DNA of 64,000 nucleotides from Candidatus Lloydbacteria bacterium RIFCSPHIGHO2_02_FULL_50_18 (GTDB taxonomy: Bacteria > Patescibacteriota > Minisyncoccia > Phycocordibacterales > UBA6899): the NCBI GenBank assembly GCA_001821395.1, contig MHLM01000001.1, positions 96,001 through 160,000 of the forward strand. The letters run 5' to 3'. This document shows, piece by piece, positions 11,556 to 29,432 of this stretch (position 1 is the stretch's first letter; each line of letters opens with the position of its first letter). A program made the position numbers and the translations under genes. The notes beneath the pieces are model-generated. The model was not told the DNA's origin. It ran no database searches and saw only the letters and a list, made by a program, of their open reading frames with translations.

Positions 11556-12029
11556 CTACTTCGGCGTATCTGTTGCTGTTCCTGTCTGAAGCGAGAGATT
11601 TGCGAGTCCGTGCTGCAAAAATTCCTTATCATACATGTCGGCCCTTTCTTCAAGCAGATTCTCATAATTCTCTTCAGACATTTTTTCCTTAACGTCTTTC
11701 CCGTGCATCGCTTCGACATCACGCTCGGCAAGTTTCTCCGACAAGAGTTCAACCATGACATGGAGATCGTATTCATCCATCAACTTGTTCACTTCGGGGT
11801 CGTTCTCAAATACGCGCGAAGGATGATGATGCTCTTCACCCGCCAGCTTGTGTCGTGAAGTAGCCGCTGGATACCCGGCATCTTTTGCACGCGAAAAGAC
11901 GTACTGCTCAAGATCATCATACGCTACCTCAAAATCAATATCGCGATGACCGTTCGCGACCGTATTCGCTATATAGACCATCCGTAAAAGGGTCTTGAAT
12001 TGTTCGGGGGTGAATGCAAGTCCTATCAT
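11556..12029 (-). CDS. Hypothetical protein (157 aa)
   Basis: Acidic, helical ORF with no recognisable motif. Confidence 0.45.
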   Translation of the reverse strand: MIGLAFTPEQFKTLLRMVYIANTVANGHRDIDFEVAYDDLEQYVFSRAKDAGYPAATSRHKLAGEEHHHPSRVFENDPEVNKLMDEYDLHVMVELLSEKLAERDVEAMHGKDVKEKMSEENYENLLEERADMYDKEFLQHGLANLSLQTGTATDTPK

Positions 12030-12063
12030 AGAAAATGACTATAACACAACACCGGATGCGACA

Positions 12064-12324
12064 CTATTCGAAGAGCGCAGCGTTCGTTTCCGCATTGCGC
12101 TCATTCAATTTCTTCTGCACAACCTTTGCGGCATCGACATCCGCATGTGCTCGCTCAAACCCAGTCCTCGCGGGCGTTCCGCTTGCAGAAAGTGGCTGAA
12201 ACGAATCGGTCGCCGGAGGCAGTTGCGGCGTGAAATATATCTTTGTATACAATAGTCCGATGATCGCGACGATGACCATAAGTGCGATGAGTGGAAGATA
12301 GCCGCCTTCGCTGTTCTTTTGCAT
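12064..12324 (-). CDS. Small membrane-anchored hypothetical protein
   Basis: Start MQKNSEGGYLPLIALMVIVAIIGLLYTKIYF, with a single N-terminal TM helix. Confidence 0.45.
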   Translation of the reverse strand: MQKNSEGGYLPLIALMVIVAIIGLLYTKIYFTPQLPPATDSFQPLSASGTPARTGFERAHADVDAAKVVQKKLNERNAETNAALFE

Positions 12325-12391
12325 AAACAAATAGTAGCGATATTTAAGCAATGAGACAATATCAGGGCGCTCCCCAAAATAATAAAAATGT

Positions 12392-12823
12392 TCAATGGCC
12401 ACCTTTTGCGAACACCGTAAGCGCACGTCTCCGCACGAGGTGATCAGGTACGGTTTGCGCAACAAGAGCCCAGAATTCTTTGGAATGATCGAACATCACG
12501 AGATGACAGAGTTCGTGCACGATAATGTAATCCTGGAGCGGTTCGGGCAGTGTCAGGATCCGATAGTTAAAATTAAGATTCCCCTTCTTTGAACAGCTCC
12601 CCCAACGTGAGCGCTGATCCCTGATCGCGACCCTGTTGTACGCCAAATTGTAATGCCGATTCCACTCTGAGAGTTTGCGATGCACCAATATACGCGCTTC
12701 TTCTTTCTGTGCCGTATACGCCCGTTTTGAGCCCGTGAGACCGCCTATCCGACGTCGTTTGGTATAAATACGGTAGCGGACCGGGAATAGACCGAAGAGC
12801 CTTTTGAGGATGATGCGTGGCAT
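12392..12823 (-). CDS. YgjP-like metal-dependent hydrolase (DUF45/M48-like, HExxH)
   Basis: IIVHELCHLVMFDHSKEFWALV matches the DUF45 signature. Confidence 0.75.
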   Translation of the reverse strand: MPRIILKRLFGLFPVRYRIYTKRRRIGGLTGSKRAYTAQKEEARILVHRKLSEWNRHYNLAYNRVAIRDQRSRWGSCSKKGNLNFNYRILTLPEPLQDYIIVHELCHLVMFDHSKEFWALVAQTVPDHLVRRRALTVFAKGGH

Positions 12824-12879
12824 ATATAGGCAGTATTATCGCATGATACCTCTACCTCGGCACGTTTGACCTGTTCCCG

Positions 12880-13060
12880 ATAATTTACATGAAATGAAAC
12901 GGACCGCCATCGCGTCATAAGCAACAGCATGAGCCGGTGAACTATTTCAGCAATTGCCTTTTCGGCAGAAAGACGACCGTCGGGTTGTTTTTCCGGAAAC
13001 AGATCCAATTTTCGCATAGATCGCATCGACATCTTTTTTATTCATTTTTATGTAGGCCTA
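12880..13060 (-). pseudogene. Remnant of a PAS-domain gene (truncated paralog of 15350-15919)
   Basis: The translated fragment DLFPEKQPDGRLSAEKAIAEI matches NLSPEKQPDGRLSHEKAKEMI of the PAS protein. The DNA segment gaaagacg(a/g)ccgtcgggttgtttttccgga is shared with 15661-15695. Confidence 0.55.
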
Positions 13061-13104
13061 TTGATTTGATGGATGATGTGACACAAGGTCAATTATCCGC
13101 ACCA

Positions 13105-14925
13105 CTAAACGACAGGCAAACAAACAGTGATGGTCGTACCCTCAATGGGCCTGGACTCAACAGAAACAATTCCTCCATTTTTTTCTATGGCATCCTTTAT
13201 GAATACTTGATTTGCCGTTGCCGCGCCCTTCTCCTTATCACTCATACGGCCTGACGTGGGTATGGAGATTTTTAATAGGTCATCCTTCGAACTATCGAAT
13301 TCGGTACTGACAATGATTGTTTTAAGATATTTTTCAGTAGTTTCGTGCGAAATATGTATTGCCCCACCCTTTTTACCATGCTTGATCACATGATCCAGTA
13401 TGCCGAATATTGCATTTTCAATGACTGTCGGATTATCAACAAGGACGTTCAGAGATTCATCGGACGAGTCGTAATGCAAGCTGACCTCTTTTCGAAAAAG
13501 CAGTGGCATAAGAGCTATGTGTAACCGGTGTATCGTGGATATCATATCAAGCCCGATTTTTGATCGAATATTCATACGCTCAACCTCCTCGAGCAAATTA
13601 TCTATAATTTGAGTTATTTTCTGCGACTCATTTGCCAAAAGACTGATTCCTATCGACATGTCTGGGATAAGTTTTGTTATGCTCTCACGAGCATCGTTGA
13701 ACTGCTTAGCTACGGAATTAATGAGAGCCATTGGCACCTTCAGTTCCTGAACTTTATGCTGCAACACGATGAACATATCACCCAAACTGACTGTCATAGA
13801 ATTCATGCTTTCAGCAAGCTCGCTAAATTCGTCTCCCGTCTCTACCTCAATACGTTGAGAGAAATCGCCTGTTTTGATCGCTTCTGAGAGCGATTGAAAT
13901 TTCGACATTGGACTAATAAAAATGATGATTGTGCGATAAGCAAAAACAGAAACCAATAAAATACCTATCAGGAAAATAATAATACTCCTTACCACGATCG
14001 AGAGGACCGTATCCTCAACGCTCTGCATTCCTGTCTCTGTTACCAAGAAAAATGGGAGGTCTTCAAATTTAATCACCGAAATATTTTCGTTTTCTTTATC
14101 TTCCGCATCATAAATTTTTATCGTTACCATCTTCGTATAGGTATCGATGATTGTTTGCACCTCATTGTATTGTAACGGTACAACCTCCTTACCAAGCAAT
14201 TTACTCGTCTGTGTGATAAGTGCGATATTTTTAGACGAAAGTGTGCCAACACTTTTCAGAAAACGTTCGGATCGATTGGAAACTAAAATGATACCGAAAC
14301 TATCGGTAAGCATAACCGTACTTGTGTTTAACAGGTGACTGCGGAGGATCGAATCATCGATCTCGGTACTGTTTGTCTTGACCACCAAAACACCAACGAC
14401 ACTGCCGTCAGCGCTCTTTACTGGGTAAGAATAATAGTAGCCAAATTGATGGCTCGTGCTACCAATTGCAACATCAATATATGCATTACCACTCAATGCT
14501 TGTTTAAAATAATCCCGAAAACTATAGTCCTCTCCGATAAAACGCGCATCTGTTGAAACAAGGCCAATACCATGAGTATCCAAAAGGTAGATGGCCAAAT
14601 ATTTGACGTTTTCCTTTGTATATTCTGAAAAAATATCCAAAAGTACTTTTTTCTTCGCTTCGTCTGGGTGAATGGAAAAATCTCGCACTAAGGAGTTAGT
14701 CCCGAGCATTTTTGCAAATAGCTGATTAGTCTTTATCACCTGAGCAGTATGATGGACCTGCTCGGTCGCTATAACATTGATGTTGTTGATATTCCCCTCG
14801 ACAAGCGCAAAATTTACATAAAACGATATGACGAACGCCGTTAAAATACATAAAACAACAGATGATAAAACAAAAAGAATCGTTATTTTCGTTCGGACTG
14901 AAAAATTTCGGATATGAGATAGCAT
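13105..14925 (-). CDS. Cache-HAMP sensor histidine kinase-like protein (probable pseudokinase)
   Basis: N-terminal TM, a dCache-like periplasmic domain (YYSYPVKSADGSVVGVLVVK), a second TM and HAMP. The H-box-like segment is VQELKVPMALINSVAKQF, with Gln at the phospho-His position. The HATPase_c region has a degenerate N-box (ILDHVIKHG) and no DxGxG. Confidence 0.7.
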   Translation of the reverse strand: MLSHIRNFSVRTKITILFVLSSVVLCILTAFVISFYVNFALVEGNINNINVIATEQVHHTAQVIKTNQLFAKMLGTNSLVRDFSIHPDEAKKKVLLDIFSEYTKENVKYLAIYLLDTHGIGLVSTDARFIGEDYSFRDYFKQALSGNAYIDVAIGSTSHQFGYYYSYPVKSADGSVVGVLVVKTNSTEIDDSILRSHLLNTSTVMLTDSFGIILVSNRSERFLKSVGTLSSKNIALITQTSKLLGKEVVPLQYNEVQTIIDTYTKMVTIKIYDAEDKENENISVIKFEDLPFFLVTETGMQSVEDTVLSIVVRSIIIFLIGILLVSVFAYRTIIIFISPMSKFQSLSEAIKTGDFSQRIEVETGDEFSELAESMNSMTVSLGDMFIVLQHKVQELKVPMALINSVAKQFNDARESITKLIPDMSIGISLLANESQKITQIIDNLLEEVERMNIRSKIGLDMISTIHRLHIALMPLLFRKEVSLHYDSSDESLNVLVDNPTVIENAIFGILDHVIKHGKKGGAIHISHETTEKYLKTIIVSTEFDSSKDDLLKISIPTSGRMSDKEKGAATANQVFIKDAIEKNGGIVSVESRPIEGTTITVCLPVV

Positions 14926-15349
14926 AGAGATTTTTCTTAACCGGTAACTCGATCATTTGCCATCACCATGACACGGTGCACTCTCGGTCAATAATTTATT
15001 CCTAAAAAGACGGGTCCATTGCAAGAACATTGTTTGATACTCGCAGCAAGCGTTCTTTGTCCATTTTTATTAACAAGAGAATGCATTTTTCATCGTCGCG
15101 GGGCAAACACTTAACTCCATCAGTATACTATGTATTACAATAGGAAACCATATAATTTCTCACTGGAACATATCTTACCCGTATTGCTTCGGCGTTATCA
15201 TTGAGATCATTCTTGCGTCCCAAGATGACGCTCTTCGACAACGGTACACATGACGAAAGATTAGTGAAGTGCCTTTGTGAACCTTGCGAAAAGCAGAAAA
15301 AACGAAAAATATTCCACGACGACTAGGGCGGCAAGGATGGGGGCTTGTG

Positions 15350-15919
15350 CTATTTCTGCAATTTTCTCCGGATCTCTTCTATTTCGCTCCGTAGTTCGTT
15401 CTTTTCTATTTCATGCTTTTTCATCAACCGATTCATCTTTTCAACTTCCTCACTTTTCTCTTTTATGAGCAAGTGGTCTGCGATCTTCTCTTTTGTAACA
15501 TCTCTTACGGTGGCCTCAATGATCGACTGATCGCAAAGATCAATACGTGCAAGCAGTACTGTTGCAGGGAACTCTTCGCCATTCAGCCTGCGGTGTGTCC
15601 ATTCGAAAAAATGTGAGCCGTCATGCATCGCCGCGTTGATCATCTCCTTGGCCTTTTCGTGCGAAAGACGGCCGTCGGGTTGTTTTTCCGGAGAGAGATT
15701 CCAAGGTCCATTCGCAGTAAATTCTGTCTTATCTTTTGCTCCAAACATTTTTAATGCGGCGGCATTTCCATCGGTGAAACTCCATGCAGGAGGTTCAAGC
15801 GTCATAAGTGCGTCCGCAGAACTTTCAAAAAGCGCGCGGTAGCGCAATTCATCACCTTTTAAGACCTCTTCTAGCGTCTCACGATAGATTGCATCGACAT
15901 TTTTTTTATTAGTGTTCAT
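15350..15919 (-). CDS. PAS domain protein with C-terminal coiled coil
   Basis: ESSADALMTLEPPAWSFTDGNAAALKMFGAKDK..., a PAS fold. The C-terminus is a charged helix. Confidence 0.65.
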   Translation of the reverse strand: MNTNKKNVDAIYRETLEEVLKGDELRYRALFESSADALMTLEPPAWSFTDGNAAALKMFGAKDKTEFTANGPWNLSPEKQPDGRLSHEKAKEMINAAMHDGSHFFEWTHRRLNGEEFPATVLLARIDLCDQSIIEATVRDVTKEKIADHLLIKEKSEEVEKMNRLMKKHEIEKNELRSEIEEIRRKLQK

Positions 15920-15974
15920 GTGGGTTTATTAATTGATGAATAATGCATTTAAAATGACTGATCATGCCTCAAAC

Positions 15975-18023
15975 TCAAACGAATGGTAAGTACACCGACA
16001 CGGTCGTCCCTGCTCCCAATTCGGATTCAATAGTGATGATTCCACTGTTTTCTTCTATGTTATTCTTGATGGTCAGCAGACCTAATTGGGGCACTTTTGC
16101 GTATTCGACACTTATTGATTTCGGGGTAGGAGCATATATTTTTAACATATCCTCCTTAGAAATTCCGAGCCCGTTATCTCTAATGATCGTTTTGAAATAT
16201 TTTCCCGCAGCATCATGTTCAATAAATATATCTCCGCCGCGCTTACTGAATTTGATTGCGTTATCCAGCAGACCTGCAAATGATCGTTCGATCAATTCCG
16301 GATCATCGACCAGAACGTGAACGAAGGTTTCGGGCGGTTCATAGTGGATAGCCACCTCCGACAGAGAAGCAGAGGGGACCAGACGGGCCTGCAGACTCTT
16401 GAGCATCGTTACGAGGTCAAATATCATTTTATGTCTAATGTTCGCACCCTCGATCTCATCAAGGAGGCCGTCTACCATTTGCGTTATTTCTTGCGAAGCA
16501 TCAACAATAAGGCTGATCCCCATCGACATGTCCGGAATGAGCGCCGTGATCTTCTGTCGCGCATCATTGAATTGCTTAGCTACGGAATTGATGATGATAA
16601 GAGGGGGCTTCAATTCCTGAATGACACTTGCAATCAAGTCTGTTTTTCTCTTTTCTAACAATAATTCTTCTGTTGTGTTTCTTAAAGTTACGATGCATCC
16701 GGTCACGACATTATTGTCATTCTTTATCGGCGCGGCGCTGCTCACGACCGATACTTCATTTCCTCCTTTGTCGACGATCACAGTATGATCTTCCGAAGAT
16801 CTTTTTTCTCCACCAAGCATCGCCTCTTCAATGAACAATATGTTCGCTTTTTTATCACCCACTCTCACCAGTTTCACAATATCCTTAAAATTCTGACCCA
16901 TCGCCTCCTCGTCCGTGATATCGGTAAAATCTTCCATTACATTATTCCAAAGCGCTATCTTCCAATTTCTATCTATTACCAACATGCCGTCACTGATACT
17001 ATTAAGATAGACCTTCTCCCTACGGCGCAATTCGCTCGAGACGGAAAATATTTTCAAGACTAGCAGCGTAAGCAACAATAGAAATAATCCGACTATAATG
17101 TCCACAAAAGCCACGTGCGTCAAACTGGAATAATAGTCCGCAAAAGCAAACTGTGTCGGACGTTGAACGACAACGCCCCATTTGTACTCGGGAATTTGCC
17201 CGTACGCAGAAAGCGCCTCCTCGCCCCCCATTTCATCATAGGTAATCTCTACGAAGCTTTTGCCACTCAATACTTCTTTTACCGCACTGACCTGCGAATA
17301 ATTAACAAACCCATTATTGAGATCAAAATACGGATGCACGAGCAGGTTGCCATTCTTATCTATAAGATAGGTAAAACCGCCGGGTCCAACATCAACATTA
17401 CGGATCCACGCGGCAATTTTATCCAGTGAAGTTTGAACAAGAAGATATCCGACAACAACGTTCTTTTCGTCACGCACCGGCGCGGCGACGACAGTAACAT
17501 ACACTTCTGGGTGGATTCCCCTTTTGAACACCCCGCTAATTTCTAGCTTTCCCGTAACCGTAATATTTTTGTACCATTCACGATCAGCACGACTTTGTCC
17601 GATGATCGACGGATCGGCAGGATACACATCAATAAGTATGCCGGCTGGATCGAGCAGTGCAACGCCAACAACATCAGAATTACCCATGGCGATATTCCCT
17701 AACAAAAGACTGTTTTTATCCCATTTTGCCTCCTTTGTGTAGTTTACGATATTTGCCTTCGACGCATGCGTAATGACAAGATCCTCAAGAAGATCCAACC
17801 TTGGGGTTACAATGCTCTTCGTATGTTCAACAAGTGCAGCACTGCGCTCATACACGTCAGTTCTCAATACATTCCGATAGGTGACAAAATCATATCCGGT
17901 TGCCAAAATATATGGAACCATTACTGCGAGAATGATCAACAGCCTACTTCTCCAGGAGGTTGGTTCTACAAAGGAAACACTATTGGACACTCGTTTCAGA
18001 ACCTCTTTGACCATATTTAGCAA
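15975..18023 (-). CDS. Cache-PAS sensor histidine kinase-like protein (H-box His replaced by Gln)
   Basis: TM, a dCache-like domain, TM, PAS, then the H-box-like ASVIQELKPPLIIINSVAKQF. HATPase_c is present with N-box LLDNAIKFS and G1 RDNGLGI. Confidence 0.75.
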   Translation of the reverse strand: MLNMVKEVLKRVSNSVSFVEPTSWRSRLLIILAVMVPYILATGYDFVTYRNVLRTDVYERSAALVEHTKSIVTPRLDLLEDLVITHASKANIVNYTKEAKWDKNSLLLGNIAMGNSDVVGVALLDPAGILIDVYPADPSIIGQSRADREWYKNITVTGKLEISGVFKRGIHPEVYVTVVAAPVRDEKNVVVGYLLVQTSLDKIAAWIRNVDVGPGGFTYLIDKNGNLLVHPYFDLNNGFVNYSQVSAVKEVLSGKSFVEITYDEMGGEEALSAYGQIPEYKWGVVVQRPTQFAFADYYSSLTHVAFVDIIVGLFLLLLTLLVLKIFSVSSELRRREKVYLNSISDGMLVIDRNWKIALWNNVMEDFTDITDEEAMGQNFKDIVKLVRVGDKKANILFIEEAMLGGEKRSSEDHTVIVDKGGNEVSVVSSAAPIKNDNNVVTGCIVTLRNTTEELLLEKRKTDLIASVIQELKPPLIIINSVAKQFNDARQKITALIPDMSMGISLIVDASQEITQMVDGLLDEIEGANIRHKMIFDLVTMLKSLQARLVPSASLSEVAIHYEPPETFVHVLVDDPELIERSFAGLLDNAIKFSKRGGDIFIEHDAAGKYFKTIIRDNGLGISKEDMLKIYAPTPKSISVEYAKVPQLGLLTIKNNIEENSGIITIESELGAGTTVSVYLPFV

Positions 18024-18182
18024 AATTTTTTTGTTGTTCGTAAAAAATTCGAACGTAAGACCACGTCAGTATACTACAAATTATAGTAAGGGACCATGAA
18101 GTTACTCAATAGTAACACGTTCTGAGTACGTCCTTCCGTATTTTTTAGAACCTGCACTTCCATATCTCATTTGCAATCGCCC

Positions 18183-21100
18183 CTAATCCAGCTTTTTAGT
18201 CCCTCGTTTTGCGATCATTCCGGAAAGCGGGAACAAACAAGCAAATACCGTGTCCTCACCGACCTTTGATGTGAACCAGATCTTCCCGCCCGCATTTTCG
18301 ACGATCTGCTTCACAACATACAGCCCGAGCCCTGTACCATCCACGTCCTGTTTTTGGGCATTACTTGCCCGAAACATCTTCTGAAATATCTGTGACTGTT
18401 CACCTTCGGGGATCGGCTCTCCGTTGTTTGACACACTAAAGATGACGTTGCCGCCGTCAGCATGAAGCACTACCGTGATTCTCCCATTATCCTGGGTGTA
18501 CTTAACCGCATTCGAAATAAAATTCTGAAACACCACACGCAGCAGCTTCGCATCGGCAGGGATGATCGGTAATTGCGCGTCGAAGTGCGTGATCATCTGA
18601 TGACCTTTTTGTGCGATACGTCCCTCCATTTCCTTGAGTACCTCATTGCACACTGCGACGAAATCAGTCGGCGTCGGCTCAACGATGAAGACGCCCATCT
18701 CAATACGAGAAACATTGAGGAGTGCGTGGATCAATTCGTTGATACGCGTATTCAGAGAGTAAGTCTCACGCAATATCTCCTTCTGATTATCGGGCATTTC
18801 ACCGTAATCACCATCCAAGAGCATCTCAAGATTCCACTGTATCGCGCCGACTGGAGTCTTTAATTGGTGCGAAGCGAGTGAGACAAATTCGGTTTTTTCC
18901 CTATCGACGATCGATTCTTTCGTGATGTCCCAATTCACACCAACCATCTTGATTGCCTTTCCGTCACCGTCACGCTCGACGAGCGCATGGTCTTGAATAT
19001 AATGCGTTTCCCCACTTGGCCATATGATACGAAATTGCATATTGAACTCCTTTTCACCTCTTAGTGCCGCCTGGATAGCATCGTCTCTCAATTTTTTGTC
19101 ATCAGGGTGCAGTCTTTTTTGCCACGCCTCGAACGTTCTCTCGGACTCTTCTTTCGACATTGCGTACAGCGCGTACATTTGATCATTCCATGAGATCTTG
19201 TCTTTTGTGATATCCCATTCCCACACACCGATCTGTGCCGACTCGGTTGCAAGAGCCAGTCTCCGCGATACTTTTGCAAGATTCTCTTTTTCGCTTTCAA
19301 CGTCATCTAAAATATTAAGCACTGCTTTTTTGGTATTTTCCAGTTCGGCAATATTTGTCACGAGGTCACTGTTCGCATTTTCCGCATACGCGATCGCCTG
19401 TTTTTTTGACCGTGCAGTCACATATATCACACCAAAAAGCGCAAAGCTCATTAACAGGCCGACCACGACAATGAGGTAGCGCAACACGGCATAGGTACGG
19501 CCATTCGGAAGTAATGGCGCATTAGTAAATTCGATCGTCCATGGGTGATCAGCCACATACATCGTTACCGTAGTTCTGAACGTAAGATCCGACGCCCACC
19601 CCTCTACGCCCTCGCTCGCATCGAACATTAATCGTTCGGGAAGCATTCGCAGTCCGTCATAGATGCGGAATGTGATGTCCGCGCTTTTGAAAGCCTGACT
19701 TCCGCGTACAAGTTCGGCGGCATCGATCACGCTGAACACATAACCGAAGACGCTTTCTGGCTGCCGGGAAACACTGCCAGACGCAACATCGCCCCAATGT
19801 ACGGGGGCGTACGCGACGAAACCCGCCTTCATGCCTGCCCCCTCCTGTTGCATCAACATCACTCGGCCGGAGATAGAGGCCTCACCAGAGGCGCTTGCCG
19901 ACGCCATCGCACTGCGCCTCGTCTTCTCCGTAGACATATCAAAACCTATGGACCGACGATCCATTTCCGTAGGGGGCTCCACATAAAGAATGGGTGTATA
20001 TGCACTTCTCTCGCCTTCGGGTGTGATAACAAAATCAGGAAGCCCCTCTTTGCGCATAGAAGCAATGAATGCATCTTTTTCATCGGATGAAACGATCTGT
20101 GCAAATCCCAAACCCTGTATGCCGGGATAATTCTTGAACACTTTGATCGCCGTAAGATATGCACGCCATTCATCTCTGCTTACGGTTTGACTCGCAGCAA
20201 AGAGGCCTCCGGTTCCTCGGAGCGTATTGACGTAGATCTCCATCTGCTTTTGAATGTTAGCGCTGATCTCAGCGACCTCAGTAGCGAAATGAGACTGCTT
20301 TTCCTTCTCAGCATTTGCTTCAAATAAATAATACACGACAAACGTGATCGCGATGCTCACAATAAATATGATCAGAGCGATCCAATTTTCCCTCCAGAAA
20401 TTTTTGACCATTGTTACTTGTCGAATGTACATTAACATGAACAAAACGAGAAGAAGGAGCAAGAATGGGACTCCGAACTGAAAGAAAATGATCTTATTTC
20501 GCTCTTGTTCCGCCATTTGTACGTGCGCCCGGACACTTTCATCTGTATATGTATTTAAAAATTGGTTATATGGCAGCGATCTTTCACCGGTCTTTATGTC
20601 AAAATAAAAATAATCTATTGAAAAATCTTCCATTTTCACGACGTGACCAGAGATCGGTTCGATCCACATAAAAAGATCGCTTGAGAGCTTTACCCCGCGG
20701 GTCTCCGGTACCCCGGGAAGGAATCCCATGAGCTCCGTTTGGTCGGTCGGCTCAATATTGCTTTTTTGGTACTTGAATACTTTTAACCCGTACAAGGTCT
20801 CCTCACCTACGTACTTCATCTGTGAAGGAGTGTTGTTGCTTGCATGCCAGTACGTGAAAGAACTACCCCCCTTGAGCCATCTGGGCGCAAAAAGATACCC
20901 GTCCCTATCTCTATCTCCGGCACCCCTTACGTGTTGCCCGTTCAGCGCATTTATCCCATAGAGTGGCTCTGCGCGAAAGATGGTCTTTCCGTCCAGTGAT
21001 GCGACGTGAAATATATTTTTTATCGTGAAGATGAATCCCGCATACGAAACGACCTCATAAGAAAAATCCGTTTTGGAGTATTGTTCAGCACCAAATTCAC

Positions 21101-21290
21101 CAATGGATGCATCATAAAAATTATCAACAGACACCATGTCCGCCTTGTACGTAAAATCGCTCGGTATCATCAATAGATACGGGGCGACAAGAAAATACCA
21201 TAACGGGACAAATAGCAAGACTGCAAAAGAAAATATGTTCCTGCGCACATATTGAATAAAGGCTGTGATCGTATGTTTTATCTTATCCAT
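18183..21290 (-). CDS. CHASE-PAS sensor histidine kinase (canonical)
   Basis: 1035 aa. It has a large extracytoplasmic N-region, a CHASE-like domain (GIQGLGFAQ..., PILYVEP), PAS, an intact H-box SLASHQLKTPVGAI, an N-box and G-boxes DGTGLGLYVV. Confidence 0.8.
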   Translation of the reverse strand: MDKIKHTITAFIQYVRRNIFSFAVLLFVPLWYFLVAPYLLMIPSDFTYKADMVSVDNFYDASIGEFGAEQYSKTDFSYEVVSYAGFIFTIKNIFHVASLDGKTIFRAEPLYGINALNGQHVRGAGDRDRDGYLFAPRWLKGGSSFTYWHASNNTPSQMKYVGEETLYGLKVFKYQKSNIEPTDQTELMGFLPGVPETRGVKLSSDLFMWIEPISGHVVKMEDFSIDYFYFDIKTGERSLPYNQFLNTYTDESVRAHVQMAEQERNKIIFFQFGVPFLLLLLVLFMLMYIRQVTMVKNFWRENWIALIIFIVSIAITFVVYYLFEANAEKEKQSHFATEVAEISANIQKQMEIYVNTLRGTGGLFAASQTVSRDEWRAYLTAIKVFKNYPGIQGLGFAQIVSSDEKDAFIASMRKEGLPDFVITPEGERSAYTPILYVEPPTEMDRRSIGFDMSTEKTRRSAMASASASGEASISGRVMLMQQEGAGMKAGFVAYAPVHWGDVASGSVSRQPESVFGYVFSVIDAAELVRGSQAFKSADITFRIYDGLRMLPERLMFDASEGVEGWASDLTFRTTVTMYVADHPWTIEFTNAPLLPNGRTYAVLRYLIVVVGLLMSFALFGVIYVTARSKKQAIAYAENANSDLVTNIAELENTKKAVLNILDDVESEKENLAKVSRRLALATESAQIGVWEWDITKDKISWNDQMYALYAMSKEESERTFEAWQKRLHPDDKKLRDDAIQAALRGEKEFNMQFRIIWPSGETHYIQDHALVERDGDGKAIKMVGVNWDITKESIVDREKTEFVSLASHQLKTPVGAIQWNLEMLLDGDYGEMPDNQKEILRETYSLNTRINELIHALLNVSRIEMGVFIVEPTPTDFVAVCNEVLKEMEGRIAQKGHQMITHFDAQLPIIPADAKLLRVVFQNFISNAVKYTQDNGRITVVLHADGGNVIFSVSNNGEPIPEGEQSQIFQKMFRASNAQKQDVDGTGLGLYVVKQIVENAGGKIWFTSKVGEDTVFACLFPLSGMIAKRGTKKLD

Positions 21291-21473
21291 ATATGATGCT
21301 CCGGTATTTATACAGAAAATTCATCATTACCCAGAATATTTTTCTATGACTCCATAAAGTATAGCAAATAAAATGTTTGAACCATATGGACGCGTTTATA
21401 CATGAGACAAAGTCCTTAGATCGGCGTTCGCGCAAAAAAACTCGGTGGAAAAAGTTTGTACCGATAATTCCCT

Positions 21474-21872
21474 CTACCGTTCTTGCCATAAAGAAACGAC
21501 AAGCGGGTTAAGGGAGCCGGTAGTAATGTGAACATTACGGACGATATCACTCACGGAACCAACAACGGCGATCGCACGTGATGTTCCACCGGTATTGCTC
21601 ACCGTATATGTACAAGTGCTCTCGTTAAGCATTACGTTCCCCGTGCCGGTGTATGAATTATTTTCACGTAGTGTTTCTAGCGCAACCTCCGCACAAGCAT
21701 TCACAAGAGCCTTGGCGTGAACTCCATTTCTTGTGTTAATACTCCCCCTGATCGACCACATACTGCTTGTTGCGAGTGCAAGAGTGAGGGAAAGCGCAGT
21801 ACCGCCGAGAACGATGACGATGAAAAGCGTCGAGAATCCTTTTTGAACTTTTTTGTGGAAAAGATATTTCAT
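21474..21872 (-). CDS. Prepilin-like (pseudopilin) protein
   Basis: N-terminus MKYLFHKKVQKG-FSTLFIVIVLGGTAL is a class III signal-like region. It lacks Glu5. Confidence 0.5.
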   Translation of the reverse strand: MKYLFHKKVQKGFSTLFIVIVLGGTALSLTLALATSSMWSIRGSINTRNGVHAKALVNACAEVALETLRENNSYTGTGNVMLNESTCTYTVSNTGGTSRAIAVVGSVSDIVRNVHITTGSLNPLVVSLWQER

Positions 21873-21873
21873 A

Positions 21874-22386
21874 TCATTTACGTAATGCTCCGCTACCGTC
21901 AAAACGCACCACGTACGGAATGCCGGCACCGGCATTTGTCGTTGCACTCGTCAGTACAAAGCTGACTTGGACGATGTTAGGCGTACCCGGTTGAGAAAAG
22001 TTCGAGAAGATAAGATCGCTTATGATAACTTTGTTATTAGTGAGCTCAATCGGAGCACCGACACCTTCAGTGACATAGAGCACCCCGCCGCTTGCAGAGA
22101 ACGTCGTAGGACTCGTAGCGGGCGTTTCAGTGATCACACTCAGAAGTCCACCGAGCGCACCGACGGCGGGACTATTGACCTGACTGGCATTACGGAGCGT
22201 TTGCGTTATTGTTTTTATTGCACGCGAGCCCTGAGCGTTCACCTCAAACACGCTTTGACTGTGCAAACGCGCGGAGATGAGGCCAGCGGAAAAACTCATC
22301 AGCCCGATCACGAACACGCCGAATATCGCCACGTAGACGATCATTTCTATAAGTGAGAAGCCTTTTTGCATATCATATATTTTCAT
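21874..22386 (-). CDS. Type IV pilin-like protein (prepilin N-terminal cleavage/methylation domain)
   Basis: MKIYDMQKG|FSLIEMIVYVAIFGV is the canonical G-F-x-x-x-E prepilin motif. Confidence 0.75.
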   Translation of the reverse strand: MKIYDMQKGFSLIEMIVYVAIFGVFVIGLMSFSAGLISARLHSQSVFEVNAQGSRAIKTITQTLRNASQVNSPAVGALGGLLSVITETPATSPTTFSASGGVLYVTEGVGAPIELTNNKVIISDLIFSNFSQPGTPNIVQVSFVLTSATTNAGAGIPYVVRFDGSGALRK

Positions 22387-22387
22387 A

Positions 22388-24091
22388 TCATAAGGGCGTC
22401 AGACCGACACTAAAGACATGTTTCACCGTGGAGCCAGACGTCCCAATGCTATCGATAACCCCCGTTACTCCCGGTGCAACAATGAACCTGCGATAACTGG
22501 CCCTCGAGAAATCTGATGTGTTTGCACCGCGATCGTAATCTTCGGTCCACCCGCCCCCCTGCGTGAGCGGATTGGCAAACGTGCGCACGGTGGTAGTGTA
22601 CATGCTTGCAAAGACGAGCACTGTTGTGTTGGCGGTTGGAATCGTCATTGATGCGGCACGATAGGTCGTATTACTGACCACGTATTTCGTATTTGAAAAT
22701 ACAGAAATGGGATTTAAGACATCAAAGCAACCACGATATGCGGATAGCGTTACTGCGATCTTTGAGGCGGCGCTAAATCCAAATGTATAATTTGCCCCCT
22801 CAGCCGCTCCTGCGATCTTGTAATAGAGTGCCTGATTGTAGTTACCATTCCTGTGACGGCCGACAAGATTCCATCCAGCGGGTATCACCGACAATCTATC
22901 GATATTTGCGGCAGGATTATGAAGGATGTGAGCAAAAAGAATATCCCCCGCGGCGACTCCGGTTGGCTTCGTTACAACCGCTGAAGCAGATGACGCAGAA
23001 TCGTACACGGTTGGAATACCGACCGGTGCTGAGGCAACAACGCAAGTAGCTGCACCCGTCGTAAATGTTCCATCAGCTGAATAGCCCGTTCCCGTGGTGT
23101 TTATCGCATAGCCACGATAGTAGTACGTCGTTGCTGCAGTGAATCCCGTACGTGCCTGGGTAAATATGCCAAGCGTCGTTCCTCCTTCCGCGACACAATT
23201 TGTCGTAGGTGCGGGTGTTGTTCCCCAACATATTCCGCGCTCTCCGATCGAGGCCGGAATACCGAGTGACGTGACGTTTGCTCCAAGTGTCGCGGTCGTC
23301 TCGGTAATAAGGGCTGCGGTTGGAGTAGTAACCGTGGGGATCACATATTCTTCATACGTAATAGTGCATAATTTTGTGTCGCCATTGGCAAGCATAATGC
23401 TATTTCCAAGGCAATCAGCAGAAAGTGTCAGAGCGTAATTGGGGTCGATCGTTGTCAAAAAAGTGTACACACCGGGACCGAGCGTCATCGTGAACGGTGA
23501 ATAAACGATCGGAATATTCACGGTATTCTGCACGGGTGGTTCTACGGAATTATCCCACGCCAACGTCTGAAGACTATTGGGAAGGAAGTCGCCGAGGACT
23601 TTTGTACCACCATGATTCACTACCGTCTTGTTCACCGTGAGCCCAATATTGAGCGGTGCACGCCAATTCGTAAGATACGTATCCATGGCAACCGTGTGAA
23701 TTCCTAGAACCTGGTCTTCCCACGAAACGACCGTATGTATCCTCTTTTGATCGCTATTGACGGTCGAGAGCGTGACCGTTCGCGAGAAAATACCCTGCAC
23801 ATCGAATGAACCGGATAGGGCCCAAACATTAGCGAGATTGGCGAGACCATAAGTGCCGTCGGGCAAATTTACGAAATCATACTGCGCATCGCGCAGATTT
23901 CTTATTATCTCAAAAGATGCTTCGGCAAGAAAAGCGGCTCTCTCACTGTTCGCGACATGTCGCGCATTACGTGCAACGGTTGTTGTGGCACCTATTGTAG
24001 CAACAACAAAAACCATAAACACTGATAATGCGATCAGTATCTCGATCAAAGAAGATCCGCGACTATTAATATGTGATGGTACCTTTTGCAT
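22388..24091 (-). CDS. Large type IV pilin-like protein (567 aa)
   Basis: N-terminus RG|SSLIEILIALSVFMVFVV is a prepilin motif with Glu5. The long Thr/Gly/Ala-rich beta-rich C-region suggests a minor or tip pilin or an adhesin. Confidence 0.7.
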   Translation of the reverse strand: MQKVPSHINSRGSSLIEILIALSVFMVFVVATIGATTTVARNARHVANSERAAFLAEASFEIIRNLRDAQYDFVNLPDGTYGLANLANVWALSGSFDVQGIFSRTVTLSTVNSDQKRIHTVVSWEDQVLGIHTVAMDTYLTNWRAPLNIGLTVNKTVVNHGGTKVLGDFLPNSLQTLAWDNSVEPPVQNTVNIPIVYSPFTMTLGPGVYTFLTTIDPNYALTLSADCLGNSIMLANGDTKLCTITYEEYVIPTVTTPTAALITETTATLGANVTSLGIPASIGERGICWGTTPAPTTNCVAEGGTTLGIFTQARTGFTAATTYYYRGYAINTTGTGYSADGTFTTGAATCVVASAPVGIPTVYDSASSASAVVTKPTGVAAGDILFAHILHNPAANIDRLSVIPAGWNLVGRHRNGNYNQALYYKIAGAAEGANYTFGFSAASKIAVTLSAYRGCFDVLNPISVFSNTKYVVSNTTYRAASMTIPTANTTVLVFASMYTTTVRTFANPLTQGGGWTEDYDRGANTSDFSRASYRRFIVAPGVTGVIDSIGTSGSTVKHVFSVGLTPL

Positions 24092-24527
24092 TGATGATAA
24101 TATTCCTTACACCAAAACTATTCGTGAGCGTTACCGAACCTGCCCCACCCGTGTTTCCCGTAACTTTCTCGAAGACGATCTCGGAAAGCCCTCCTGCGAA
24201 TACGCCACTCGGCAGGTCGAGCTTCTGGTCTGCTGAGATATCTCTTAGGGCATAGACCCCACCCTTAAAGACGACCACGGAACTCGTAAGTAATGCTACC
24301 CCCCATGGTGAGTCGGCTTTCCCCGACTCCGCATTCGCCTGTGCGTGACGGAGCGCCCCGACGACTCCCATCGTCGCGATCTCGAGATTTTCATGAGCCT
24401 TGAAACTGCCGTAGACTGTTATGGAGACCGCAGTAAGCAACATTATAATGCCAACGACCACGATCAACTCGACGAGTGTGATCCCACGGTGTGATGATCC
24501 TTTAATTGATCTGACTTGATAGTCCAT
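24066..24527 (-). CDS. Type IV pilin-like protein
   Basis: Start MDYQVRSIKGSSHRG|ITLVELIVVVGIIMLL is a prepilin motif. Confidence 0.7.
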   Translation of the reverse strand: MDYQVRSIKGSSHRGITLVELIVVVGIIMLLTAVSITVYGSFKAHENLEIATMGVVGALRHAQANAESGKADSPWGVALLTSSVVVFKGGVYALRDISADQKLDLPSGVFAGGLSEIVFEKVTGNTGGAGSVTLTNSFGVRNIIINAKGTITY

Positions 24528-25638
24528 ATAGTGGTCCCATGATAGCGAGCACAATAAAGCCGACGATCAGACCCACCACGATCAAAACGATCGGTTCTAA
24601 TATGGTGGCAAGATCACGCGACATTGCGTCTGTTTTTTCTTCAAAAATAATACCGATGCGGATGAATGTTTCCGACAACTTCCCGGACTTTTCGGCGGAG
24701 ATAATAAGCTGCTGTATCGGAATGGGAATGAATCGATCTATGTTCAGTAGACTGCCAAATGCTTCTCTGAACGATTCCCCGCGGAGCACGCTTGATTGCA
24801 GGTGCTCATAAAACCTTGCGTATGAGTCATATGATGTCCCTCTTTTGACCGAATCAAGCGCGTCAGCAACCGGGAATCCGGCTTGCAAAAGCACGCCGAA
24901 GATATACCCGAAACGCGCAACCTCGACCCCCTGCACGAGATCTTTTATCCCTGGTATGTGAAAAAGAATTACATCGCCGATGAATTTGGTTCTTTTATAA
25001 AAAAAACATGTATATACCAGAAGACCGATAGCGATGACGGATATAGGCACCGCAAAAGCACCATACTGCTCAAAGAAAGAGCCCATAGAGACCAATATTC
25101 TCGTCGCAAGAGGAAGCTCTCCCTTTGTTTCTGAAAAAATAGCGACAATCTTCGGTAGCACGAGCCACGCACTTCCCAGTGCGATGATAAGAGCGAGAAA
25201 AAAGACGATGCCCGGATACAACAATGCGGACCGGAGTCGTGAGTGGAACATCTTCTCTTTGTGCTGCTGAACGGTGACAAGATTCAAATGATCTGACAGC
25301 CTTCCCGCCTCCTCACCCGAACGAATGAGCGAGATGATGCGTTCTGAAAAAAGTTTTGTCTCCGAAAACGACCTCCAAAGCGGCATTCCCGAATTCACCA
25401 TCGACTCGATCGCAGCGGTAATCTTCTTCATCTTGCGTGTCTTGACCGAAAGACTGAGTGCTGCAAGGGCTGCGGATATCCCCATACCGGAAGAAATGAG
25501 CAGGCTCAAGTTTTCGATGAAATAGTCACGCTCATCACCGAAACCAACACTGAGGTACGGCCAGTCGGGGCGATATTCGAATGGGACTTCTTTAAAACCC
25601 TCATGTTCACGCGATTTTCGAAATTTTATTTGTTGCAT
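24502..25638 (-). CDS. pilC: Type IV pilus assembly platform protein PilC (GspF family)
   Basis: 378 aa with two GspF repeats and 3 TM helices. Confidence 0.8.
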   Translation of the reverse strand: MQQIKFRKSREHEGFKEVPFEYRPDWPYLSVGFGDERDYFIENLSLLISSGMGISAALAALSLSVKTRKMKKITAAIESMVNSGMPLWRSFSETKLFSERIISLIRSGEEAGRLSDHLNLVTVQQHKEKMFHSRLRSALLYPGIVFFLALIIALGSAWLVLPKIVAIFSETKGELPLATRILVSMGSFFEQYGAFAVPISVIAIGLLVYTCFFYKRTKFIGDVILFHIPGIKDLVQGVEVARFGYIFGVLLQAGFPVADALDSVKRGTSYDSYARFYEHLQSSVLRGESFREAFGSLLNIDRFIPIPIQQLIISAEKSGKLSETFIRIGIIFEEKTDAMSRDLATILEPIVLIVVGLIVGFIVLAIMGPLYGLSSQIN

Positions 25639-25647
25639 GGTCGTTTA

Positions 25648-27294
25648 TTAAGAACCGACAACACGAAGCACTTCTTCGATGGTTGTCATACCAGCTTTTA
25701 CTTTTTCGATGCCATCCTCAAACATGGAGACGAATCCCTGGCTCTTGATGAGCGCCATCACGTCTTTGGTCGACGGGCTCTTTGCAATAAGATTTTGTAG
25801 CTCAGGAGAGGTGCTTAAAAACTCAAATACTCCGATACGCCCCTTATACCCAGTATGCGAACAAACCTCACAGCCGTTTCCCTTATAAAGGGTCGCCCCA
25901 TCCTTAAAATGTCGGGCAACCTCCGAGCCAAACGACTCGAGCTCAGCGACCTTGTTTATGCGAAAACTTACCTTACACGAATCACAAATTTTGCGTACGA
26001 GCCTTTGACCAACGATCAACTCGAGCGTCGAGCCGACCAAAAATGGCTCAACGCCCATATCGATGAAACGTGGGATTGCTGTTGCCGCATTATTGGCGTG
26101 AAAGGTCGAAAGCATTAGATGCCCCGTCAACGCTGCGTTGACCGCGATATCAGCCGTTTCAAGATCGCGGATTTCTCCGACAAAGATGGTGTTCGGGTCT
26201 TGACGCATGATCGCGCGAAGTCCGTTTCCGAACGTCAGATTCGTCTGAGTATTGACCTGGATCTGATTTATTCCGTGGATCTTATATTCGACCGGATCTT
26301 CGATCGTCGTGATGTTCGTGCCCCTCGTATTGATGATCTTGATGATCGAGTAGAGCGTTGTTGTCTTACCGCTCCCCGTAGGACCAGTTACTAGGATCAT
26401 GCCGAACGGCTTCTTTGCGCTTTTAATGATCTGTTCCTGTAATGCGAGAGATAATCCAATGTCACTCAGACCGAGATCACGGACGGATGAAGAAAGAATG
26501 CGGATAGCGACCTTTTCCCCGTCGAGCGTAGGAACTATCGACACCCGGAGGTCGACCATCTCTGTGTGACTCGGAGATGCGTAGCGAATGACCCCGTCCT
26601 GTGCACTGAAATGCTCATCGATACGTAACTTGGACTGGACCTTCAAACGATTGACGATATTCTCATAGTATTCTTTCGGCATTTCGCCGACATCATGAAG
26701 TACGCCGTCTATCCTGAAGCGGATGACAACGCGATGCTCTTCGGGTTCACAATGAATATCGGACACCTTGAGCAGTAACGCCTCCTCAAATATCTGATTG
26801 ATGATCTCCGGAGCTGCACGCCCCTTGCTATCGATGATCTTCGCGAAGATCGCCCCTAATCCCAGATGGTAGTTCGCAAAGATAGCATCAATTTCATCAG
26901 GGATTGCGAGAGTGATCGTCAGTTTTTTATCGGGAAATAGCGGCTGCAGATTCGCCAAGAGTTCTTCCTGTGTGGGGTCATCAGTTGCGATGACTACGTC
27001 TGAACCTTTTTGTGAATAAACTACCGTACGATATTTTTTGGCAAGCTCCTCGGGAATAAGAAAAACCTGTTCTTTTCTGGGGCTGTGCGCTTCGAGATCG
27101 GAATAAGAAACCCCGAAAGACTCTGCGAATGCCTGACCGATGATTGCCCTCGAAAGCAAGCCCTGACCGAGCAAATAATCAACGAATGAACCGCGATGTT
27201 CTTTCGCGTATTCTTCCGCGATTGCAATATCTTTTTCTTCGATATAATTCCCGGCAAGAAGAACTTTTTTGATCGCTTCGTCATTAAAATTCAT
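25648..27294 (-). CDS. pilB: Type IV pilus assembly ATPase PilB (GspE family)
   Basis: Walker A GPTGSGKTTTLYS, Asp and His boxes, and a tetracysteine CDSC...CEVC. Confidence 0.85.
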   Translation of the reverse strand: MNFNDEAIKKVLLAGNYIEEKDIAIAEEYAKEHRGSFVDYLLGQGLLSRAIIGQAFAESFGVSYSDLEAHSPRKEQVFLIPEELAKKYRTVVYSQKGSDVVIATDDPTQEELLANLQPLFPDKKLTITLAIPDEIDAIFANYHLGLGAIFAKIIDSKGRAAPEIINQIFEEALLLKVSDIHCEPEEHRVVIRFRIDGVLHDVGEMPKEYYENIVNRLKVQSKLRIDEHFSAQDGVIRYASPSHTEMVDLRVSIVPTLDGEKVAIRILSSSVRDLGLSDIGLSLALQEQIIKSAKKPFGMILVTGPTGSGKTTTLYSIIKIINTRGTNITTIEDPVEYKIHGINQIQVNTQTNLTFGNGLRAIMRQDPNTIFVGEIRDLETADIAVNAALTGHLMLSTFHANNAATAIPRFIDMGVEPFLVGSTLELIVGQRLVRKICDSCKVSFRINKVAELESFGSEVARHFKDGATLYKGNGCEVCSHTGYKGRIGVFEFLSTSPELQNLIAKSPSTKDVMALIKSQGFVSMFEDGIEKVKAGMTTIEEVLRVVGS

Positions 27295-27306
27295 AAAAAT
27301 TACTCG

Positions 27307-27693
27307 TTATTTTTTTTGAAATAATTGTTCGACCCTTCTAATAACCTCGGCGATCGGCGTATCGGATTTGGAAATAAAGTCTGTAGCCCCCAGTGAGCGC
27401 GCCTTCTTCTCGTCTTCTTCCTGACTAAGATTCGACAAAACGAGAATGGGTATCTTGTTGTTTTTTTTCTGTAATCGTTCAAGGACCTCAAAGCCGTTCA
27501 CGATAGGCATGATGAGGTCGCACACGAGAAGATCAAAATGAGAGCGTTCAATCAAGGAGAGCGCCTCTTCTCCGTTCGGCACACTCTCCGCATAAAAACC
27601 CGAATTTTGGAGTTTTAAAACAAGCGCACGTGAATACGCCCTTTCATCCTCAGCAATAAGAATCCTCTTCTTACTTTTCTCACTTGGCGGCAT
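27307..27693 (-). CDS. Response regulator receiver domain protein (CheY-like, stand-alone)
   Basis: KRILIAEDERAYSRALVLKL... with a phospho-Asp in FDLLVCDLIMP and a conserved K in ILVLSNLS. Confidence 0.75.
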   Translation of the reverse strand: MPPSEKSKKRILIAEDERAYSRALVLKLQNSGFYAESVPNGEEALSLIERSHFDLLVCDLIMPIVNGFEVLERLQKKNNKIPILVLSNLSQEEDEKKARSLGATDFISKSDTPIAEVIRRVEQLFQKK

Positions 27694-27859
27694 CAATAAA
27701 GTGTAACACAATTTTTATAGAAGCTTTAATTTATTGCATACGTGAATATGCCAACAAGCGATAGTTTCCGTACGAACGATTTACCAAATTCTCATCTGGT
27801 AGACATCGCAACCATGGCAATGGGGCTTAGCGCTCAGTCAACCGCGCATGACCGATGGT

Positions 27860-29320: not shown

Positions 29321-29432
29321 AGAGGTCTTTCTTATGAAAAAACGTCACACGTGTCGTTGCTATAATGATAGCACCAATGGCCATTGAACAAAAATAACTG
29401 GGGCACGAAGTTCCCCGTATATGATCAGGGCG

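Follow-up and report, generated by a model that had tools for sequence, protein, structure and literature searches.

A duplicated kinase-like and PAS gene array with a chimeric sensor gene and a decayed PAS copy in a Candidatus Lloydbacteria genome

A 64,000-nucleotide (nt) stretch of the genome of Candidatus Lloydbacteria bacterium RIFCSPHIGHO2_02_FULL_50_18 (contig MHLM01000001.1, positions 96,001 to 160,000; hereafter the window) carries on its minus strand two kinase-like genes (K1 and K2), an intact small gene (PAS), the remnant of a second copy of that gene (PAS′), and a third sensor gene (K3). In the minus-strand direction, which is used throughout for gene order, a CHASE kinase is followed by K1, PAS, K2, the PAS remnant, and a gene for a YgjP-like protein (Table 1; all coordinates are positions in the window unless a contig is named). 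The locus is a tandem segmental duplication whose second PAS copy has become a pseudogene, and the second kinase-like gene has acquired a foreign sensor half. An original prediction, made from four minus-strand open reading frames (ORFs), had proposed the duplication of a module consisting of a sensor kinase-like gene and a PAS gene; all four frames are present in the ORF list, and the locus is unchanged across many groundwater metagenome assemblies. Relatives of the locus were available on three short Logan contigs, L007 (SRR22387763) and L008 and L009 (both SRR22388057, 2-3 kb each).

Duplicated units, junction and PAS remnant

The two units are similar in a series of colinear blocks that comprise the last ~215 codons of K1 and K2, the spacer after their stop codons, the PAS start, and the PAS core. 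With blastn, positions 13016-13751 match 15884-16621 (62% identity over 755 nt, E = 3e-55), and 12956-13008 match 15651-15704, the 54-nt PAS core (87%, E = 7e-11). The region downstream of K2 aligns with the spacer and PAS gene at z = 17.8, a score reached by none of 500 dinucleotide shuffles. A repeat search independently found four colinear families of direct repeats, each with two adjacent same-strand copies in the same order; these correspond to the kinase-like core (D1, spacing 2870 nt), the PAS start (D4, 2868 nt), the PAS core (D3, 2695 nt), and a box in the promoter region (D2, 2946 nt). The window contains the 30-mer singled out earlier at just two places (12968-12997 and 15663-15692; none expected from 100 shuffles), and the similarity reaches well past this ~30-nt core. 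Colinear similarity, repeat families, and the junction described below thus bear out a tandem duplication of a sensor kinase-like gene with its PAS gene. Duplication of the module as a whole is confirmed for the C-terminal ~215 residues of K1 and K2, which are 47% identical in amino acids (aa) and 62% in nucleotides, but not for the full length of the two proteins, as the Cache regions are only ~24% identical and K2 is chimeric.

The spacer between PAS and K2 is the duplication junction, and it retains fossils of the sequences that were brought together there. In gene direction it starts with ~38 nt of native PAS-downstream DNA (15349-~15312) common to every PAS copy, followed by a decayed copy of the 3′ end of the CHASE-kinase gene (~15296-15272), a copy of the spacer upstream of K1 (i1) with the box TAGTATACTGA (15130-15120), and the remnant of a K1 start (K1′), a 20-codon ORF reading MDKERLLRVSNNVLAMDPSF* (15064-15002). 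This ORF matches the start of K1, MVKEVLKRVSNSVSFVEP, and is identical to the K1 N-terminus at 11 of 18 residues. Local alignment of the junction with 18262-17960 gave z = 7.7 (0 of 500 shuffles; z = -0.5 for a control region), and blastn against the region upstream of K1 gave 61.8% identity over 152 nt; a three-way alignment with L008 was also made. The last ~60 nt of the CHASE-kinase gene were carried along in the duplication, and copies of this 3′ end are present both in the window spacer and in L008. These fossils imply that the duplicated unit ran from ~60 nt inside the 3′ end of the CHASE-kinase gene to ~38 nt past the PAS stop codon, a length of ~2.9 kb, and that the second unit originally began with a K1-type gene.

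Spacer i1, which is 76% conserved in L008, contains a sigma-70-like site (TTGAGT-18-TATAAT, 18109-18080; 10 of 12 matches in a promoter scan) that is likely the K1 promoter, as predicted from its sequence. An Rfam scan of 12000-18500 returned no match, so the 424-nt spacer is not a known RNA, and a terminator scan found no convincing terminator after PAS or K2.

The remnant downstream of K2 had been interpreted as a pseudogene of PAS, and its lesions (a frameshifting deletion, a second deletion, and a start codon changed from ATG to ATA) agree with this. It is not the single 180-bp piece that had been described; three PAS-derived blocks remain, amounting to ~100 of the 570 nt of PAS, and no Pfam domain is recognized. 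The copy of the K1-PAS spacer sits directly after the K2 stop codon. Block 1 (13045-13016) is the start of the gene and reads MNKKDVDAIY against MNTNKKNVDAIY in PAS (80% over 50 nt), with a new in-frame ATG at 13045 in addition to the altered original one. Block 2, the core (13008-12955, LDLFPEKQPDGRLSAEKA), is directly abutted by block 3, the last 13 nt including the TAG stop codon (12954-12942, ATTGCTGAAATAG); this end was mapped by alignment with the PAS ends of relatives. The frameshift stems from the loss of ~172 nt before the core, and ~283 nt have been deleted after it. Four of the ~7 differences in the core are synonymous third-position changes, which suggests that PAS′ remained in working order for a while before the deletions. 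A default MAFFT alignment of the remnant with the PAS gene misplaced the start block, and local alignment and blastn were used instead.

Past the remnant, 12955-12303 is homologous to L007 953-1595 (76.5% over 656 nt; spacer alone 69% over 156 nt, E = 8e-18). The native spacer on the YgjP side therefore follows the remnant, which places the remnant at the ancestral downstream end of the array. The 95-aa ORF found here crosses this native spacer between PAS and YgjP and extends 79 nt into the start of the YgjP gene. It appears to be mostly an accidental frame through former intergenic DNA, and in annotation it should be marked as a pseudogene fragment.

Table 1. Features of the duplicated locus and associated genes in the window (TM, transmembrane segment)
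Feature	Position	Strand	Description
CHASE kinase	18183-21290	minus	Canonical CHASE-PAS-HisKA-HATPase_c kinase directly upstream of K1; Pfam CHASE (4.8e-49), HisKA, HATPase_c
Spacer i1	18024-18182	minus	Best sigma-70-like match of the region and conserved box TAGTATACTGA
K1	15975-18023	minus	Pfam dCache_1, PAS_9, and HATPase_c; dCache_1-TM-PAS-DHp-like-HATPase_c
PAS	15350-15919	minus	Intact stand-alone protein of 189 aa; Pfam PAS_9; C-terminal coiled-coil tail
PAS-K2 spacer (duplication junction)	14926-15349	minus	424 nt
K2	13105-14925	minus	606 aa; Pfam dCache_1 and HAMP, sub-threshold HATPase_c
K2, K3-type half	13752-14939	minus	14-nt leader and codons 1-~391: dCache_1, TM, HAMP, signalling helix to ...SLGDMFIVLQHKV
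K2, K1-type half	13105-13751	minus	DHp-like (QELKVPMALINSVAKQF, Gln at the acceptor position) and degenerate HATPase_c
K1-PAS spacer copy and PAS′ start	13016-13104	minus	80% over 50-51 nt to 15884-15934
PAS′ core and last 13 nt of PAS′	12942-13008	minus	Core 87-88% to 15651-15704
Native PAS-to-YgjP spacer	12824-12941	minus	Homologous to spacer of L007
Remnant ORF	12745-13032	minus	95 aa; no Pfam family
YgjP-like metallopeptidase	12392-12823	minus	143 aa; PF01863 (1.4e-34); downstream neighbour and synteny anchor, kept in L007 and in Ca. Lloydbacteria L015
K3	27860-29320	minus	dCache_1-TM-HAMP-coiled coil; no kinase core
Receiver-domain gene	27307-27711	minus	Comes after K3

Chimeric structure of K2 and kinase motifs

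From 14 nt before its ATG to codon ~394 (13743-14939), K2 aligns with K3 (28138-29334) over 1197 nt without a gap and with 72.8% nucleotide identity. The breakpoint between K3-like and K1-like sequence lies at 13745-13752, at the H-box, where sliding identity switches within ~10 nt: across 13770-13740 identity to the K3 type falls from 0.5-0.9 to ~0.2, and identity to the K1 type rises from ~0.3 to 0.6-0.9. At this point K3 reads ...SLGDTFTALENKV RERTKELEK, K2 reads ...SLGDMFIVLQHKV QELKVPMALINSVAKQF, and K1 reads ...KTDLIASVI QELKPPLIIINSVAKQF; the in-frame joint in K2 is the codon that normally encodes the phospho-acceptor His. K2 is a chimera of a K3-type sensor half and a K1-type core. The third paralog announced at 27860-29320 is accordingly a paralog of the K2 sensor half, but it has no kinase-like core, and no nucleotide-level relation to K1 was detected.

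Several features of the relatives suggest that the exchange ran from a K3-type gene into K2. K3 has an ortholog (P0169) in a syntenic locus (L010, 83% nucleotide identity), and K3-like proteins of ~437 aa with Cache and HAMP only are present in other Paceibacterota, where the architecture is widespread (P0174, P0180, P0182, and P0184). The K2 architecture was found only in the window and in the K2 ortholog P0168 of the SRR22388057 relative. From the existence of coreless K3-like proteins elsewhere and the synteny of the K3 locus with that of a relative, from the pairing of a K1-like PAS domain with HisKA and HATPase_c in the nearest outside relatives of the K1 core, and from the restriction of the K2 architecture to the window and one relative, we infer that the K3-type sensor is the donor.

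Ratios of nonsynonymous to synonymous substitution (dN/dS), calculated between the window and the SRR22388057 relative, are 0.13 for K2 overall (against P0168), 0.08 for its sensor half, 0.25 for its core, 0.23 for K1 (0.22 for the K1 core), and 0.11 for K3. PAS, with 90-94% aa identity to the copies in relatives, has a ratio of 0.05 against both the L007 and the L008 copies. K2 is under purifying selection and is therefore a working gene; only PAS′ is decaying. In one assembly, ANAN16-1 (ERZ28563591), a ~42-nt patch containing a 38-nt inverted copy of 14292-14329 divides K2 into 208 and 402 aa (L003 2273-2321, corresponding to window ~14292-14407), and K3 is in two parts of 387 and 84 aa (L011 5723-7140). 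Both genes are intact in all other assemblies, and these splits reflect either variation between strains or faulty assembly.

The start codon of K1 is most likely the ATG at 18014, which gives a protein of 679 aa; the same start is used by gene callers and by its ortholog P0122. In K1 and K2 of both the window and the relative, four genes in all, the acceptor His is replaced by Gln (VIQELKPPL in K1; window 16570-16660 and 13700-13790). This Gln aligns with the His of the VicK-like kinase 4i5s, of HK853-class kinases, and of the CHASE kinase of the window, whose H-box (SHQLKTPV) retains His; SrrB was also included in the comparison. Pfam HisKA has no match in K1 or K2. The HATPase_c domain of K1 (9e-12) keeps the N box (DNAIKF) and the G1 box (DNGLGI) and has a degenerate G2 box (PQLGL). 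In K2 the domain scores 17.5 bits, short of the Pfam cutoff of 26.4 bits, neither G1 nor G2 remains, and in the window copy His has taken the place of the N-box Asn. A profile of the K1/K2 core matches VicK-like 4i5s (3.8e-12), SrrB 6paj, and HK853 3dge over positions 11-235.

In an exhaustive search among 1.84 billion representatives, only two clusters, K1 and K2, match this core at E <= 1e-30 (>411 bits), and the next match scores 113 bits. A pattern scan of GTDB genomes with the core profile returned nothing, and a scan of JGI metagenomes returned only two kinases at 26% identity. The closest outside relatives of K1 are four canonical dCache/PAS-HisKA-HATPase_c kinases of Paceibacterota (P0194, P0197, P0200, and P0206; profile scores 94-113 bits). 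They share with K1 the succession of PAS segment (IVFIEEAML...), DHp, and CA, and P0206 also has a Cache-like N-terminal region. Unlike K1, which has VIQELKPPL and PQLGLLTIK, they keep the His in VHDLRSPL and the G2 box in GTGLGLYIVK; K2 lacks G1 as well.

To judge from these motifs, K1 and K2 are most likely lineage-restricted, derived histidine pseudokinases that have been kept under selection, and they should not be labelled histidine kinases without qualification. By analogy with pseudokinases known elsewhere, they probably signal via protein contacts and not via phosphotransfer. No response regulator gene is adjacent to K1 or K2; they might be partnered by the neighbouring CHASE kinase, by a response regulator, or by the PAS protein.

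Relatives and neighbouring genes

The relative represented by SRR22388057 has both kinase-like genes. Contig L009 encodes the full-length K2 ortholog (P0168, 70% aa identity), which has the same chimeric structure, and 20 nt past its stop codon is a stretch of PAS starting at about codon 142, so that another part of the gene survives than in the window. Contig L008 contains a PAS 3′ end (93% identical to the window), ~49 nt of spacer, a CHASE 3′ fragment (FVPLSGMITKKGIKRIY*), i1, the intact K1 ortholog (P0122, 59% aa identity), and another PAS. Since the junction is shared with this relative, both duplication and chimera are older than the divergence of the two organisms; the recent origin implied by the original prediction is not supported by a relative that has the same junction and a K2 ortholog of the same composition. 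The survival of different PAS parts beside K2 indicates that the decay of PAS took place independently in the two lineages.

On L007, the last 113 codons of a K1-type gene are followed by an intact PAS (90% aa identity) and, after 108 nt, by YgjP, with no K2 and no remnant between. On a more distant Ca. Lloydbacteria contig (L015, syntenic, 72% identical), K and PAS genes are absent and YgjP is preceded by a patatin-like gene; together with the names of homologs, this contig assigns the organism to Parcubacteria/Paceibacterota. More distant homologs of the stand-alone PAS protein (P0005 and P0024) are in contexts without adjoining kinase-like genes, so the K-PAS pairing is neither ancient nor widespread.

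Two further observations were made on L008. The upstream PAS copy (L008 1-126) has an in-frame TGA (EKMN*LMKKHE) 30 codons before the stop, where the window has CGA (Arg); by its sequence, this lesion is the second in a PAS copy and arose independently. The similarity of K1 (15975-18014) to its ortholog (L008 409-2448) is uneven, with 46% aa identity in the Cache region (synonymous divergence, dS, 1.9), 79% in the PAS domain (dS 0.73), and 68% in the core (dS 0.96). Either the extracytoplasmic sensor is the fastest-evolving part of the protein or the gene is a mosaic produced by exchange between units.

A single-strand run of genes comprises K3, the receiver-domain gene, a PilB/T2SSE ATPase (25648-27294), PilC/T2SSF (24502-25638), pilin-like ORFs carrying the N_methyl motif (21474-24554), the CHASE kinase, K1, PAS, and K2. 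Sensors thereby flank both sides of a type IV pilus-like cluster (13105-29320, minus strand), and these sensors may regulate pilus function. The coiled-coil tails at the C-termini of K3 (27860-28150) and PAS (15350-15450) are alike (ETEQMNKFMIGRELKMTELKKEIADLKEKLE against EVEKMNRLMKKHEIEKNELRSEIEEIRRKLQ, 39% identity over 31 aa, E = 4e-4), and neither protein has an output domain; the tail may be a shared interaction or output helix. The YgjP-like protein belongs to a short form (143-156 aa), which aligns with PF01863 over profile positions 102-204 only and is the same in three organisms (window 12392-12823; L007 1075-1509; L015 1294-1764). Truncation of the gene by the rearrangement was considered and rejected, since the short form is also present in L007 and L015 and is hence a short variant.

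Competing explanations, proposed history and known systems

K2 and its PAS fragment could in principle have been inserted between PAS and YgjP from another locus or by horizontal transfer, in which case the likeness to K1-PAS would reflect family membership. PAS lies directly beside YgjP in L007, the K1 and K2 cores are only 43-50% identical and more diverged than the neighbouring PAS blocks, and the DNA upstream of the K2 gene in the relative (L009 1-313) has no match to the window spacer, as such an insertion would lead one to expect. It is nevertheless quite improbable: the spacer before K2 contains copies of the CHASE 3′ end, the K1 promoter region, and the first 18 codons of K1, which belong to this locus; the native YgjP-side spacer flanks the remnant; and the K1/K2 core family is confined to the lineage, the genome and metagenome scans having produced no comparably close relative. 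A different polarity has also to be considered for the exchange, with the Cache-HAMP-core architecture of K2 ancestral, K3 derived from it by loss of the core, and no swap into a K1 duplicate. Sensor dS between K2 and K3 is ~1.5-1.7, about as deep as that between the window K2 and its relative, and such distances alone give no polarity; moreover, the more distant homologs of the sensor are Cache-HAMP-PAS-HisKA-HATPase kinases. Those kinases, however, carry PAS and a HisKA with His on their homologous Cache-HAMP sensors, and the K2 core groups not with them but with the K1 cores. A K1-type start codon region also lies just upstream of K2, and this, together with the coreless proteins of other Paceibacterota and the synteny of K3 in a relative, makes a K2-first history very unlikely.

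The PAS remnant might be disputed on its own, either because its match to PAS is a conserved motif (PEKQPDGRLS) or chance, or because the ORF of 95 aa is a small gene in its own right. The motif is common in this PAS subfamily, with matches at 45-65% identity to over 100 PAS proteins of many phyla, and the gene callers of two assemblies place a gene of 91-95 aa here. The match is nonetheless present at the DNA level, with differences that are mostly synonymous, and forms part of a colinear series that includes the kinase core, the spacer, and the start block of PAS. The greater part of the ORF corresponds to intergenic DNA of L007, and the frame has no Pfam match and runs into the YgjP start. 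We find this interpretation hardly credible.

Tandem duplication followed by a sensor swap, decay of PAS′, and retention of K1 and K2 as pseudokinases is probably the best explanation overall, and several observations weigh against it. L007 extends over just the final 113 codons of its K gene, which makes a single-copy state there no more than possible. In dS between the window and the relative, K1 (1.2) and K2 (1.3) exceed K3 (0.56) and PAS (0.63); the gap may be due to saturated values, a higher rate of evolution, or older paralogs that were retained differentially, and strict orthology of the K genes should be treated with caution. The contigs of the relative are compatible with the order K2-PAS′-junction-K1-PAS, opposite to that in the window, and also with three units. 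The 313 nt upstream of the relative's K2 show just two short colinear matches to the window junction, at z <= 2.0, which is not significant. Finally, a Gln at the acceptor site is compatible with other activities, and the functions of K1, K2, and PAS are predictions. The last 28 nt of L009 are identical to the first 28 nt of L008, and this overlap was not relied on for ordering the units, because a 32-nt repeat node between two PAS copies of a three-unit array explains it as well as true adjacency of the contigs does. Unequal crossing-over between such repeats could add units or delete K2, giving a state like that of L007.

With duplication and swap as the preferred explanation, the history of the locus would have begun in an ancestor of this Parcubacteria-like lineage with a tandem duplication of ~2.9 kb, from ~60 nt before the CHASE stop codon to ~38 nt past that of PAS, giving the order CHASE-K1-PAS-junction-K1′-PAS′-YgjP. 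Codons ~20-466 of K1′ (Cache, TM, and PAS) would then have been replaced by a copy of that half of a K3-type sensor which spans Cache, TM, and HAMP, with the reading frame kept across a joint exactly at the H-box codon; the resulting K2 would combine a new input with the K1-type DHp/CA-like core and would have stayed under purifying selection. PAS′ would have been functional for some time until it was destroyed by two internal deletions in this genome, the PAS copy beside K2 in the relative having lost another part, and K1 and K2 would act as pseudokinases that signal via protein contacts. A more specific proposal, which we consider rather unlikely, is that K1 and K2 form a Cache-linked pseudokinase family working with the small PAS protein via the PAS domain of K1 itself; the swap, in removing this domain from K2, would have made PAS′ dispensable, so that it was lost independently in two lineages. 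If this is true, nature has run an experiment at this locus, exposing a PAS-PAS partnership and signalling independent of phosphorylation in bacteria of the Candidate Phyla Radiation (CPR), signalling that possibly feeds the neighbouring CHASE kinase and the type IV pilus cluster.

Duplication and domain shuffling are an accepted route to new sensor kinases, and the intermediate steps are rarely visible. Here, in a host group with small genomes, ~5 kb preserve nearly all of them: the junction, the dead start, the donor type, the breakpoint at the H-box, and the decaying partner gene. In engineered sensors such as Taz and Cph8, a foreign sensor and linker helix are fused in frame to the DHp of another kinase near the H-box. 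K2 differs from these in that the fusion is natural, the joint falls at the acceptor codon itself, and the output module is catalytically degenerate.

New kinases have been described as arising mainly by lineage-specific duplication together with shuffling of N-terminal sensors (Alm, Huang & Arkin 2006; PMC1630713). The locus resembles this pattern in the duplication of a kinase-type gene, its new N-terminal sensor, and its orphan state, with no adjacent response regulator; it departs from the pattern in that physical traces survive (a junction that includes part of the gene upstream, the dead start, the donor type in the window, and a breakpoint resolved to ~10 nt), that the duplicated genes are pseudokinases, and that the co-duplicated partner gene decays. 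Histidine pseudokinases are themselves known, among them DivL of Caulobacter, which binds a response regulator and modulates another kinase (PMC4211667), and PsmA of Streptomyces (PMC12963549). K1 and K2 resemble these in having a DHp/CA fold without the phospho-acceptor His, and they are kept under purifying selection. DivL is unlike them in being a cytoplasmic protein with Tyr at the site and multiple PAS domains, whereas the site is Gln in K1 and K2 and their dCache sensor is extracytoplasmic; K1 and K2 belong to an unrelated and very narrow CPR lineage and are related to DivL and PsmA in sequence only through the general HisKA/HATPase_c family. A family of kinase-like sensors that lacks the His and is under selection in an uncultivated lineage is a concrete target for questions about pseudokinase signalling. 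The locus is a well-preserved instance of the known route of duplication and sensor shuffling, with a pseudokinase twist, and not a new type of system.

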